DNA from: an uncultured candidatus Porisulfidus sp.
Lineage (GTDB): Bacteria > Pseudomonadota > Gammaproteobacteria > Poriferisulfidales > Oxydemutatoraceae
Assembly: GCA_965200865.1 (NCBI GenBank)
Contig: CBDAVG010000002.1
Span: 1,097,838 to 1,161,837, forward strand
Direction of reading: 5' to 3'
Length of the DNA stretch: 64,000 nucleotides
Positions 7,672-9,863 of the stretch are shown in pieces. The stretch's first letter is position 1. Each line of letters opens with the position of its first letter. The position numbers were made by a program, and so were the translations under genes. The notes under the pieces are model-generated. The model was given only the letters and a program-made list of their open reading frames with translations, did no database searches and was not told where the DNA came from.

Positions 7672-7929
7672 TTATAAATAAAGATAATAACAACCCTCAG
7701 TGCTATTTATAATATAAACATTGGCTAAGGCTTTACCTGTATCGGTCAGCACTATAACGTTTTTAATCAAGCAATATTCACGCCCGTCTATCATTCCGTA
7801 AGCATCCAGATACGCTTGCTGATACGGTGGCAACTTGGCACGATAAGCCTCAATGAAATCAGTAACTCGTTCTTTACACCATGTCGCATTATTCACCTGA
7901 TCTTTAATTTCGCTCATAATATCTTGCAT
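7672..7929 (-). CDS. Hypothetical 85-aa protein; last gene of the rep / Gp37-68 / DndC-like operon.
   Basis: ORF 30 nt downstream of the DndC-like gene on the same strand. Confidence 0.5.
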   Translation of the reverse strand: MQDIMSEIKDQVNNATWCKERVTDFIEAYRAKLPPYQQAYLDAYGMIDGREYCLIKNVIVLTDTGKALANVYIINSTEGCYYLYL

Positions 7930-7958
7930 AACTTTTCTCCTTTTGAATTGTTTCTTCC

Positions 7959-9146
7959 CTAGTGTCTCATTTTTACTATCATTTGACTCCGTAAGCCAAC
8001 AACTTTATGTTTTGTGGTCTTTTCAAGATCTTCGGCATTTTTCCACTCGTTCTTTATAACGGACATCTCACTATCGGAAAGAAATCTCATATTTGCATCA
8101 TTTCCTAGTTGCTCAAGTGCATAGTAGATTTTCTTTCTAGCAGAAAGCGTTAATGAACCAGGTATTATGCTGCCATCTTTTCTTCTGCGGATATTACCTT
8201 GCCGTGAAAACGGATAGCGGTTTTGCGGTTGTTGCGAAAACTTAATTAACCAGTTCCTAAAATTGATTAAAAACCGAAAGTTATTATCGGCGTTATCCAA
8301 TCCCTCTAAACTCCGGTCTTTTTTTACTACGGAACAAGTCCAGCAACCAAAGCGTGCAGATTTGTTGCCGCATGCAGGTGTGTCGTCTTTAGACAATACA
8401 ACGGGACATTCGCCACCAAGTGCATCTTTATAAAGTTGAATAAGCCGACTGTAATGTTCACCCCAAGGCGTTCTGAAAGCTGCGATCATTTCCCACAAAT
8501 CGTCAACCGCTACATCTGCGATTGGCATGAATACTGAGCACCTCTCCAGGGAGGCATGCTTAGATATGAAATTACTATGATCTGTTAAGTGTTTGCTAAT
8601 ACTTTTCGATCTTGTCTGACTTTCATCAAACCGAGATCCTAAAAGCAAAACAACATCACCAGTTTCAGAGATAATTTTTTTAATATAACTAGTTGTTGGT
8701 CTGATCTTCAATCGGTCGACGCACCAACGAAAAACCCTCGACGGCGGAGGGTAACCCCTACCGATAATATTGACCCAGAAGGTATCACTATTCTCAGGTT
8801 GAGTAATTGTAAATTTCATCGGAATTTTGTTCTTTTGCATAAAAGCCCTAAATTTACTAATGTATTCCTCGGCTAAAGACATAACGAATGGACTCTCTAC
8901 AAGTGTGTTATTACACACGACATATATCGTCCGTTTATGTTTTTTTAGAGACAAAAGATATTTGACTACCAAATGCAAAACTAAAGTAGAATCCTTCCCA
9001 CCAGAATAAGCGATGACCCACGGCCTTTCATCTTTTTGTTGATACTGTTGGTCTATACGTTGTAATACCTTCCACTCAATATCTCTAATTAGCAAAGGAA
9101 ACGTCTTTTTACTCATCGTCTCATTAGGTATGCTTGCTAAACTCAT
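7959..9146 (-). CDS. DndC/SspD-like PP-loop ATP pyrophosphatase (phosphoadenosine phosphosulfate reductase family) with a C-terminal Cys cluster.
   Basis: PP-loop VIAYSGGKDST; C-terminal CPVVLSKDDTPACGNKSARFGCWTCSVV, which resembles the DndC Fe-S cysteine cluster as recalled from memory. Confidence 0.6.
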   Translation of the reverse strand: MSLASIPNETMSKKTFPLLIRDIEWKVLQRIDQQYQQKDERPWVIAYSGGKDSTLVLHLVVKYLLSLKKHKRTIYVVCNNTLVESPFVMSLAEEYISKFRAFMQKNKIPMKFTITQPENSDTFWVNIIGRGYPPPSRVFRWCVDRLKIRPTTSYIKKIISETGDVVLLLGSRFDESQTRSKSISKHLTDHSNFISKHASLERCSVFMPIADVAVDDLWEMIAAFRTPWGEHYSRLIQLYKDALGGECPVVLSKDDTPACGNKSARFGCWTCSVVKKDRSLEGLDNADNNFRFLINFRNWLIKFSQQPQNRYPFSRQGNIRRRKDGSIIPGSLTLSARKKIYYALEQLGNDANMRFLSDSEMSVIKNEWKNAEDLEKTTKHKVVGLRSQMIVKMRH

Positions 9147-9149
9147 GCC

Positions 9150-9863
9150 TTATAGTCCTCTAGGCATTTCATCATAAGTGCGATTGTCCAATGTTCGCCC
9201 ATTGCAGTGTTTAGAAACGCCGCCCCATTGCTTAAAGAAAAACGGAATTTTATTCTGCCGACATTGTGCTCTAATTGACCGAACCCATTCTTTCTTCATT
9301 GGTCGTGCACCAGGGCCTGACTCGCCGCCGACAATAACCCAATCAATTCCGCATAACGGAATATTATCTAGCGGGCCAATCAAAGGCTCGCAAGATAGAA
9401 ACTTGATATTGGCCGGTACTGCTTGTAAATCGTCAATGCGGTGACAAACTAGCATGTTCTCAACCGATACCCCCATCCAGATATTGCTACCCCATGGCAA
9501 ACTCAGTGCTAAATCTTTTACTCGCTTGCTTCGTTTTGTAAGAATCTGAAAAGTATGCTGTCGGCATTCATTCATGATCTCAAAAGTGCGTCGGATAAAA
9601 TGAACTGGTACTTTCTCATGAAATAAATCACTCATAGAGTTGACAAAAATATGCTTTGGCTTCTTCCACTTAAAAGGTTCATCTAGCAAATCCTCATGGC
9701 AAACTACATCAAATCCATTTTCATATTTCTTACAGCCCATTGCCTGTAAGCGTTTTGTCATGCGCTCGGCATAGCAGTGCTTGCAACCAGCACTAACTTT
9801 GGTGCATCCAGTCACAGGATTCCATGTTGCCTCCGTCCATTCAATACCTGATAATCTAGACAT
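9150..9863 (-). CDS. Phage Gp37/Gp68 family (DUF5131) three-Cys-motif protein.
   Basis: N-terminus [27 protein letters not shown] (C-x6-C-x2-C) is characteristic of the Gp37/Gp68 family. A 4-nt gap to the DndC-like gene suggests translational coupling. Confidence 0.65.

Follow-up and report, generated by a model that had tools for sequence, protein, structure and literature searches.

In the window, a stretch of DNA of 64 kb, positions 1 to about 15300 belong to an integrative conjugative element (ICE) that is inserted beside a gene for tRNA-Ser. The element extends past the left end of the window, and a single end of it is visible. Its features, together with the segment that is absent from a closely related sister ICE (locus L003) in a blastn comparison with the window, are the following:

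3894..7920, no strand assigned: variable cargo segment that L003 lacks
3947-6907, convergent: gamma-class N6-adenine methyltransferase of 986 aa, with the motifs DLACGTG and NPPY
7081-7476, no strand assigned: 131-aa ORF in the variable cargo segment
7672..7929, minus strand: orf85, an 85-aa ORFan in the variable insertion
7959..9146, minus strand: short-form PP-loop ATP pyrophosphatase of the DndC family, with a Cys cluster
9150..9863, minus strand: DUF5131 protein (phage Gp37/Gp68) with a Cx6Cx2C motif and a predicted radical-SAM-like fold, without TcmP
9887..11140, minus strand: Rep-like protein, first gene of the co-directional block rep-DUF5131-DndC-like
11150..11441, no strand assigned: iteron array upstream of rep, 12.7 copies of a 23-bp unit
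11605-12642, minus strand: TIGR03756/TraU-like protein, ICE backbone
13054-14412, minus strand: PFGI-1-type ParB-like protein, ICE backbone
14409-15245, minus strand: ParA, ICE backbone
11605..15245, minus strand: the ICE backbone stretch as a whole, which also includes a 147-aa ORF
15306..15395, minus strand: tRNA-Ser(TGA), found with ARAGORN, right-hand boundary of the element

The preliminary description of this DNA had placed the genes in an ICE-like mobile element, a setting that was confirmed by the presence of the TIGR03756 protein (236.6 bits, cut-off 188.35), ParA, a PFGI-1-type ParB (98.7 for the ICE_PFGI_1_parB model, i.e. below its cut-off of 143.75), the iterons (Tandem Repeats Finder score 423, 86% matches), an RPA-like Rep and the boundary at tRNA-Ser. 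Membership of the PFGI-1 / ICEclc-like elements is indicated by the backbone proteins together with the tRNA-flanked boundary. Beyond the tRNA gene, Pfam matches identify the chromosomal genes pdxA, surA and lptD, and at the boundary the GC content rises from about 0.39-0.41 to 0.45-0.47. The backbone at 11605..15245 is collinear with the sister ICE at 86.8% nucleotide identity. A megablast search of positions 7000-12000 against plasmids gave no match. The Rep-like protein, 82% identical to its L003 homologue, is distantly related to replication initiator protein A: its match to PF10134 RPA (E 4.6e-5) lies below the cut-off, and tblastn matched annotated RPA genes of Deinococcus plasmids and recovered no other related replicons.

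The backbone is ordered as ParA, ParB, TraU-like protein, iterons, Rep, DUF5131 and DndC-like enzyme, and the last three genes, which are co-directional, are probably co-transcribed. The four ORFs rep, DUF5131, DndC-like and orf85 were all recovered on the minus strand in the positions given to them before. As for the spacing of these ORFs, for which 23, 4 and 30 nt had been reported, the 23 nt between rep and DUF5131 stood, and the other two gaps were measured as 3 nt (between DUF5131 and the DndC-like ORF, counted from the first ATG of the latter) and 29 nt (from the DndC-like ORF to orf85). The start codon of the DndC-like gene may in fact be the second ATG, at 9116. The sister element has no counterpart of the first ATG; its gene begins at the residue that matches M11, so that the gap to DUF5131 amounts to 29 nt there.

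The assignment of the product of 7959..9146 to the PAPS-reductase family, with an SGGKDS PP-loop and a DndC-like RFGCWTC motif, was corroborated by family models as well as by invariant residues. The protein matches PF01507 (E 7e-10) and, far more strongly, the PADLOC model of DndC (E 3.8e-99); it marginally passes TIGR03183 DndC (301.3 bits, cut-off 290.4) and misses the threshold of NF005316 (335 against 536). The TIGR03183 match spans profile positions 5-362 of 447, the canonical C-terminal ~85-100 residues being absent. Both the PP-loop S48GGKDS53 and the cysteines C142, C247, C259 and C268-x2-C271 (RFGCWTC included) are invariant in 31 homologues. By sequence, this set of cysteines fits the [4Fe-4S] cysteines of DndC plus the DndC-specific Cys dyad, and binding of a cluster is predicted. 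A structural model has the PP-loop fold, with CysH, TtuA, NcsA and LarE as the closest solved folds. We had to consider that the gene might encode an ordinary CysH-type PAPS/APS reductase; it came out as DndC-family. No CysH model is among the NCBIfam matches, the sole match related to sulfate assimilation is CysD (sulfate adenylyltransferase subunit, E 0.005), and in the fold comparison the likeness to CysH is confined to the shared PP-loop core. As had been proposed for DndA and DndD, partners are lacking: no homologue of DndA, DndD, DndE, DndB, GmrSD or TcmP was found anywhere in the 64-kb window.

The identification of the neighbouring protein as DUF5131 with a C-x6-C-x2-C motif likewise held. 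Its match to PF07505 (E 2e-101, 339 bits, cut-off 28.9) is full length, residues 5-234 being aligned to positions 2-243 of the 243 in the profile, and the motif C20-x6-C27-x2-C30 is invariant across 20 homologues. It also matches the PADLOC models PDC-M30B/M41B (E 1e-116 to 1e-120), and the best matches among solved structures are spore photoproduct lyase and lipoyl synthase. The family is extremely widespread on phages and plasmids. The usual partner of DUF5131 is TcmP (PDC-M30A/M41A in PADLOC, with TIGR04474 as the NCBIfam partner entry), which adjoins it in 41 of 80 viral loci and also on two plasmids, pCAR1 and Methylobacter. The pair is already listed in PADLOC as the candidates PDC-M30/M41, which are themselves unvalidated, and the literature on DUF5131, PDC-M30/M41 and TcmP yielded incidental mentions only. 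In the window a TcmP profile built from 41 sequences found no match. For both the DUF5131 and the DndC-like protein of the window, exact look-ups returned no record, and PDB sequence searches (with the single sequence and with a profile) retrieved no relative of either family.

The third gene that had been counted as a member of the module, orf85, does not appear to belong to it. Although it is preceded by a good Shine-Dalgarno sequence, orf85 has no match in Pfam, NCBIfam, PADLOC or PHROGs, and a search of 1.8 billion representatives returned nothing but the protein itself. Moreover, the similarity to the sister ICE stops at 7921; orf85 starts 8 nt inside that point and therefore lies outside the conserved block. 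It is unrelated cargo. We also considered that orf85 could be a detached DndC C-terminus, a piece that in the dnd operons of remoter relatives forms a separate mini-ORF of 65-90 aa after a short DndC; a profile of 25 such mini-ORFs matched neither orf85 nor the window. The large methyltransferase of the cargo segment gave weak matches to N6_Mtase, Eco57I and MAD2.

The relatives of the DndC-like protein revealed a different gene neighbourhood. In a neighbour-joining tree the proteins of the window and of the sister ICE are nested in a 9-member clade, in which a GmrSD/DndI-like nuclease lies directly downstream of the enzyme in all eight independent contexts outside this ICE. In four members a DndB-like protein and a ~137-aa protein are encoded upstream of the enzyme as well, giving a cassette in the order DndB-like DGQHR protein, ~137-aa protein, DndC-like enzyme and GmrSD/DndI/SspE-like ParB-HNH nuclease (loci L002, L165, L168-L173 and L259). 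The DndC-like protein of the window is 62-66% identical to those of the cassette. In PADLOC the GmrSD partners hit the models HEC-06 and Orf5 (= DndI), with a weaker match to SspE. The cassette is possibly the 'DUF262' dndC neighbourhood that is mentioned in PMC12914056. Neither DndD nor DndE was found at any locus of the clade, whereas the remoter relatives (40-48% identity) belong to dnd operons with DndD and DndE, DndD being nearby in 68 of 89 loci. The C-terminal mini-ORF of those operons is absent from the GmrSD clade and from the window. Cassettes of the clade do erode, since in one member (L001) GmrSD has been reduced to a truncated remnant. A search for GmrSD, DndB or the ~137-aa gene elsewhere in the window, pseudogene remnants included, found none. 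Conjugative plasmids commonly carry orphan DndC/PAPS-reductase-like genes (583 of 767 matching records); in IncC pAR060302, for instance, such a gene lies beside an orphan dcm.

The combination of the two genes had been put forward as a single, undescribed module for DNA modification or defence. It is indeed assigned to no system in PADLOC, NCBIfam or the searchable literature, and it could represent a two-enzyme DNA-modification module, a new modification or defence system on an ICE, in which, for example, the radical-SAM enzyme could provide a SAM-radical or sulfur-handling step that replaces DndA/D/E. The order rep-DUF5131-DndC-like is kept with short intergenic gaps in both known ICE variants, which is equally expected of a functional pair, and the two adjacent, co-directional genes are under purifying selection between these variants (dN/dS ~0.15 for both; 0.155 for the DndC-like gene of the window against that of the sister element). 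In addition, the structural matches of DUF5131 include an enzyme that acts on DNA (spore photoproduct lyase) and one that inserts sulfur (lipoyl synthase), and a claim that DndC needs SAM-radical chemistry is discussed, with scepticism, in PMC10853773. However, the adjacency recurs in the one sister ICE only, plus a phage locus (L105) where the order is reversed and which is the single case among distant phage homologues. As the two ICE variants are ~87% identical in DNA, their shared gene order reflects inheritance and not independent recurrence, and the tight 3-nt junction is not kept in the sister. The pairing is missing from the eight other contexts of the DndC clade, where the enzyme goes with GmrSD, and DUF5131 was found within 8 kb of none of the 80 dnd-type metagenome loci. 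Conversely, a DndC-like gene lies within 8 kb of one in 80 DUF5131 viral loci, against 41 for TcmP. A weak association of DUF5131 with distant phage PAPS-reductase-like genes may exist (within 8 kb in 8 of 80 phage loci, one of them the adjacent case). The genus distributions of the two families on plasmids are almost disjoint. Finally, neither gene carries a nuclease or other effector for defence, and for that reason orphan genes for modification or establishment are more likely than a 'defence system'. The idea of one module was thus not borne out, and we consider a two-enzyme system unlikely; its more specific form, a minimal machine in which DUF5131 and a DndD/E-independent short DndC would place a sulfur or other mark on backbone or base and so disguise the ICE, is in our view distinctly improbable. 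As each gene is separated from its habitual partner genes, the two look like independent orphans. We tentatively favour, at somewhat less than an even chance, the reading that they are two independent accessory enzymes co-transcribed with rep and not a new paired defence system.

Other readings of the same genes were weighed against this one. That the locus protects the host cell against phages, as part of a defence-island cargo that would include the nucleases and the large methyltransferase, would agree with the PADLOC matches of both proteins (DndC; PDC-M30B/M41B) and with the lone N6A methyltransferase, the EEP-family nuclease and RadC in the neighbourhood. Yet both PADLOC systems are incomplete, the one without DndD/E and the other, an unvalidated candidate, without TcmP; the methyltransferase segment is a separate insertion that the sister ICE lacks, and the two genes reside in the replication/partition backbone and not in a cargo hotspot, so that this explanation deserves little credence. 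We are equally doubtful that the DndC-like enzyme modifies, e.g. thiolates, a tRNA, a nucleotide or a small molecule. The closest solved folds (CysH, TtuA, NcsA, LarE) and the lack of a DNA-scanning partner DndD/E in the window would fit such a substrate, but the similarity is overwhelmingly to DndC (E 1e-99, against E > 1e-3 for tRNA thiolases) and the partners in the clade, DndB-like and GmrSD/DndI-like, are DNA-directed proteins of phosphorothioate systems. Least credible is that both genes are what remains of broken systems, without function and in decay. Their habitual partners are missing and a relative has a truncated GmrSD, but the reading frames are intact, all family-invariant residues are kept and the low dN/dS of both genes largely refutes this reading.

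On the reading of two orphan enzymes, the DndC-like enzyme would stem from a lineage without DndD/E, and the ICE would have kept the enzyme alone out of the cassette. Its PP-loop is intact, its Cys cluster is conserved and the gene is under purifying selection. The enzyme would bind a [4Fe-4S] cluster and adenylate its target with ATP, most likely a backbone phosphate of DNA as in DndC and TdpC, and sulfur would be installed from the persulfide of a host cysteine desulfurase without a DndD/DndE scanning complex. TdpC, a single enzyme, suffices for phosphorothioation according to PMC12914056, and a phage PAPS reductase helps to evade Dnd (Piel 2022, as cited in PMC13551039). By analogy, the DndC-like enzyme may by itself mark the DNA of the element and of its host, much like an orphan methyltransferase, and have an anti-restriction or establishment role; alternatively, phosphorothioate-aware nucleases in new hosts would be blunted. 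In either case the benefit would lie in establishment after transfer. DUF5131 would be a radical-SAM-type enzyme that holds a [4Fe-4S] cluster via C20, C27 and C30, the nearest solved folds being radical SAM enzymes that handle DNA and sulfur. Its action is probably independent of the DndC-like enzyme. Both orphans are perhaps self-protective.

If the short DndC lineage does modify DNA without DndD/E, the phosphorothioate-type routes would widen beyond Dnd, Ssp, BREX type 4 and Tdp, and the ICE-borne orphan would be the backbone-modification counterpart of the orphan methyltransferases that mobile elements use against restriction. A two-enzyme machine produced from the ICE's replication operon would, if true, constitute a new route of DNA modification by which a mobile element disguises itself. 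Should the two genes be independent, which the evidence suggests, the window would be a rather ordinary case of accessory genes on a mobile element and the better lead would be the DndB-like/DndC-like/GmrSD cassette of the relatives. The locus nevertheless offers a concrete, clonable handle on DUF5131, which is among the most conserved and widespread phage and plasmid proteins of unassigned function.

Among the known systems that were compared, SspABCD and BREX type 4 gave matches to SspD (E 6e-10) and to BrxP (E 5e-15) that fall well short of the one to DndC, and a PADLOC scan of the five flanking ORFs found nothing like SspB, SspC or BrxC. With DndC of DndABCDE (TIGR03183) the window protein shares the family, the SGGKDS PP-loop and the Cys cluster including RFGCWTC, yet it lacks the C-terminal ~85-100 residues, and DndA, DndD and DndE are not encoded in the window. 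The protein nests among the DndC-like proteins of the GmrSD cassette, whereas the window and the sister ICE are without the nuclease, the DndB-like protein and the ~137-aa protein, through loss or from the outset, and have DUF5131 upstream instead. Of the DUF5131 plus TcmP pair (PDC-M30/M41) the window has the B component with the invariant three-Cys motif, but nowhere the A component. TdpC of TdpABC (An et al. 2025, as cited in PMC12914056) serves as a precedent for phosphorothioation by a single PP-loop enzyme that needs no DndD/E-type partners; genes resembling TdpA/B were not seen in this DNA. The orphan PAPS-reductase/DndC-like proteins of phages and plasmids differ in identity (23-31%) and in architecture, the IncC one being a long fusion. 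Still, the anti-Dnd gene of a vibriophage (Piel 2022, as cited in PMC13551039), the 817-aa IncC protein and phrog_424 are, like the window gene, DndC-like and borne on mobile elements without the rest of a dnd operon, and such orphans occur near orphan methyltransferases; by analogy, an anti-restriction role is plausible.

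The evidence says that the genes found together behind rep at this end of the ICE would represent a lineage-specific juxtaposition and not a recurrent system. The features concerned are the following.

9887-11140, minus strand: Rep, 417 aa, remote RPA-type
9150-9863, minus strand: DUF5131/Gp37-Gp68 protein, 237 aa (PF07505, phrog_2045)
7959-9146, minus strand: DndC-family protein, 395 aa from the first ATG (TIGR03183, PADLOC DndC)
7672-7929, minus strand: orf85, 85-aa ORF with a good Shine-Dalgarno sequence
3894-7920: insertion missing from the sister ICE, with orf85, a 131-aa ORF and an N6A methyltransferase
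3947-6907, plus strand: gamma-class N6-adenine methyltransferase, 986 aa, motifs DLACGTG and NPPY
15306-15395: tRNA-Ser, the element boundary, with chromosomal pdxA, surA and lptD beyond

The ICE-like setting given in the preliminary description is borne out by a TIGR03756 ICE protein, a PFGI-1-type ParB, ParA, RadC and the tRNA-Ser boundary. An iteron of 23 bp (12.7 copies) precedes rep; this array overlaps a 157-aa minus-strand ORF and two plus-strand ORFs (95 and 101 aa) coding for repetitive peptides (11128-11601), all three almost certainly repeat artefacts. The spacing of 23 nt between rep and the DUF5131 gene was reported correctly, whereas the gaps given as 4 and 30 nt measure 3 nt (DUF5131/DndC-like) and 29 nt (DndC-like/orf85). 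Homologues of DndA, DndB, DndD, DndE, GmrSD and TcmP were found nowhere in the 64-kb window, in line with the claimed absence of a cysteine desulfurase and an SMC-like ATPase. In the 967-1767 / 1806-2693 region a RadC-family JAB protein is common to the sister ICE, and an EEP-family (exo/endonuclease/phosphatase) protein lies within a second segment missing from it. A second low-GC island (29700-42200, GC 0.39-0.43), flanked by nusA and slt, carries a PLD-family (NgoFVII-like) nuclease at 31543-32460 and, at 36109-42201, three tandem paralogues of 618-684 aa with no Pfam match, the closest two being 39% identical.

In Pfam the product of 7959-9146 matched only the generic PAPS_reduct domain (E 7e-10), but it scored 301.3 bits with the NCBIfam DndC model TIGR03183 (cut-off 290.4) and matched the PADLOC DndC models at E 4e-99. 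No CysH model matched in the Pfam, NCBIfam and PADLOC searches, so that the refuting condition of an ordinary CysH fails and the earlier description as a DndC-like member of the PAPS-reductase family stands; SspD and BrxP were likewise rejected as assignments. The PP-loop SGGKDS and C142, C247, C259, C268 and C271 are invariant in 31 homologues, and score and motifs place the protein marginally within the DndC family. Its alignment with TIGR03183 ends at profile position 362 of 447 and therefore the canonical C-terminal region is missing. The start is uncertain (9116-9146): translation from the first ATG, at 9146, yields 395 aa and leaves a 3-nt gap. L003, the sister ICE, has no ATG matching 9146; its gene begins at the counterpart of M11 (window ATG 9116), with a gap of 29 nt. 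The predicted model (pLDDT 80) resembles the PP-loop enzymes CysH and APS reductase, and also the [4Fe-4S] tRNA thiolases TtuA and NcsA; sequence searches of the PDB found no DndC-like structure.

L003 was reached via P0001, its DndC-like protein, which is 95% identical to that of the window. Gene order matches that of window 14459-7921, where the DNA is 86.8% identical; the alignment stops 8 nt inside orf85 and restarts at 3893, so that 3894-7920 is, judging from this comparison, a separate insertion, with orf85 outside the conserved block. No match to orf85 was found in four HMM libraries, and among 1.8 billion representative proteins it matched itself only; that it is a detached DndC C-terminus was examined and ruled out. 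The 986-aa methyltransferase shows weak similarity only, to N6_Mtase, Eco57I and MADS MAD2 models, and has no obvious cognate nuclease nearby.

Below the single match at 95%, the search for DndC-like homologues gave ten clusters at 62-66%, followed by thousands at no more than 48%. Genomic context was recovered for eight of the ten clusters. In seven of them a GmrSD-type protein of about 570 aa (DUF262 + DUF1524) is encoded directly downstream, its start codon often overlapping the preceding stop, and the remaining one, L001, holds a truncated GmrSD N-terminus. Four complete short contigs carry a four-gene cassette: a DndB-like DGQHR protein (about 420 aa), a protein of about 137 aa, the DndC-like enzyme and GmrSD. 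L259 is a fifth, the gene 5' of its ~135-aa protein being cut by the contig end, and the context of L165 is another ICE, behind a Dam-like methylase. DndD/E were present at none of the seven cassette loci:

L171:470-5019
L172:167-4735
L170:298-4901
L168:248-5054
L259:615-3939
L002:8001-10861
L165:181-3821

The cassette GmrSD proteins match PADLOC HEC-06 and 'Orf5', and SspE more weakly; Orf5 is the DndI protein encoded in the Salmonella dndBCDE-orf5-dndFGH cluster (PMC4198939). The cassette has the look of a minimal modification-restriction system of phosphorothioate type, as a candidate; a 'DUF262' dndC neighbourhood in PMC12914056 may be a passing mention of it, and this DndB-like/~137-aa/DndC-like/GmrSD-DndI-like arrangement, outside the window, is the more promising lead.

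The best 80 metagenomic relatives (36-46% identity) sit in genuine dnd operons, in which a 65-90-aa ORF, corresponding to the C-terminal piece of canonical DndC, comes after a short DndC; next are DndD and either a DndE-HerA-like fusion or DndE by itself, sometimes with DndA upstream. At L014:7920-12906 and most of L005-L084 this 'split' DndC comprises a ~380-aa enzyme and the small ORF, which matches DndC profile positions ~405-455; after DndD comes a DndE domain fused to a HerA/FtsK-like ATPase (~510 aa). Of 89 loci, made up of the window, the closer clade and these 80 from metagenomes, 68 have DndD within 3 kb. By neighbour joining, L003 and the window group inside the GmrSD-linked clade, sister to L002; DndD and the C-terminal mini-ORF are missing throughout this clade. 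Most simply, an ICE lineage would have gained, or kept, nothing but the enzyme from a compact cassette that never works with DndD/E.

The DUF5131 identity of 9150-9863 (PF07505, E 2e-101; also phrog_2045) and its three-Cys motif were confirmed, Cx6Cx2C (C20, C27, C30) being invariant in 20 homologues from several phyla at 66-71% identity. For a mobile-element protein it is unusually conserved: homologues still 67-72% identical to it (among P0122-P0240) are found in Geomicrobium and in MAGs with the labels Pyrinomonadaceae, Ignavibacteriae, Chloroflexi and Fimbriimonadales. When the 80 closest DUF5131 loci of viruses or prophages were examined, a TcmP-family gene directly adjoined DUF5131 in 41 and a DndC-like gene lay within 8 kb in only one; annotated DUF5131-TcmP pairs also occur on plasmid pCAR1, on a Methylobacter plasmid and in Geomicrobium. 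TcmP proteins match PADLOC PDC-M30A/M41A and the window DUF5131 matches PDC-M30B/M41B (E about 1e-116 to 1e-120), and therefore PADLOC already lists the usual pair, as a defence candidate that is not validated.

Behind rep the arrangement is operon-like, DUF5131 and then the DndC-like gene, and the preliminary description had proposed a module. Among 84 non-viral loci, L003 alone has DUF5131 and a DndC-like gene no more than 8 kb apart. DUF5131 is also within 8 kb in eight of 80 phage loci with distant PAPS-reductase-like genes (22-42% identical), a figure that stands without a base rate. One of these, L105, has the genes adjacent in reversed order and is the only independent adjacency of both families found; on this high-GC phage contig (7899-10214) a DUF5131-like gene of greater length (367 aa) comes immediately after the distant PAPS-reductase/DndC-like gene. 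Plasmid host genera are nearly disjoint, mainly Klebsiella, Escherichia, Bacillus and Salmonella for DndC-like matches and Burkholderia, Pseudomonas and Streptomyces for DUF5131, and the 3-nt junction hinges on the upstream ATG missing from L003. On this distribution the pairing is conserved within one shallow lineage only; a true two-enzyme module is unlikely. Between the two ICE variants dN/dS was 0.155 (DndC-like gene) and 0.154 (DUF5131), against 0.116 for rep and 0.053 for the TraU-like gene; every family-invariant residue is kept in both proteins, and the GGE motif of the window DUF5131 is intact. Since the ratios are comparable with those of rep and the TraU-like gene and the invariant residues are retained, both genes are, on these substitution patterns, under purifying selection and not decaying remnants. 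Host defence, a non-DNA substrate and decay are given less weight still.

We tentatively prefer, at slightly under an even chance, a composite reading: an independent orphan DndC-like modifier pre-protecting the ICE, beside an unrelated DUF5131 enzyme. The former would bind a [4Fe-4S] cluster, adenylate a DNA backbone phosphate and then substitute in sulfur from a host cysteine desulfurase. Action without DndD/E is suggested because the clade consistently lacks those genes and TdpC, reported as sufficient alone for phosphorothioation (PMC12914056), is a precedent. On an ICE, without a cognate nuclease, it may serve as an orphan modification enzyme pre-protecting the element, by analogy with a phage PAPS reductase reported to aid Dnd evasion (Piel 2022, as cited in PMC13551039). 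Conjugative plasmids often carry orphan DndC-like genes, accounting for 583 of 767 matching records. The IncC plasmid pAR060302 (L256; NC_012692.1, 101003-103456) encodes an 817-aa protein annotated as PAPS reductase, DndC-like in its N-terminal part (31% identity), with an orphan cytosine methyltransferase (dcm) a few genes away; the protein is shared by hundreds of enterobacterial conjugative plasmids. For DUF5131 an unrelated radical-SAM reaction is probable, perhaps with nucleic acid as its substrate.

The exact combination is absent from PADLOC, NCBIfam and the searchable literature, and the view that it matches no described system was correct. Compared with PDC-M30/M41, the window has a clear DUF5131 family member but only half of the pair, so the system is not present. 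Compared with Dnd systems, it has a DndC-like protein without the full-length architecture and its gene without a DndD/E operon; somewhat new are a DndC lineage that dispenses with DndD/E and the C-terminal region, and its orphan copy in an ICE backbone.
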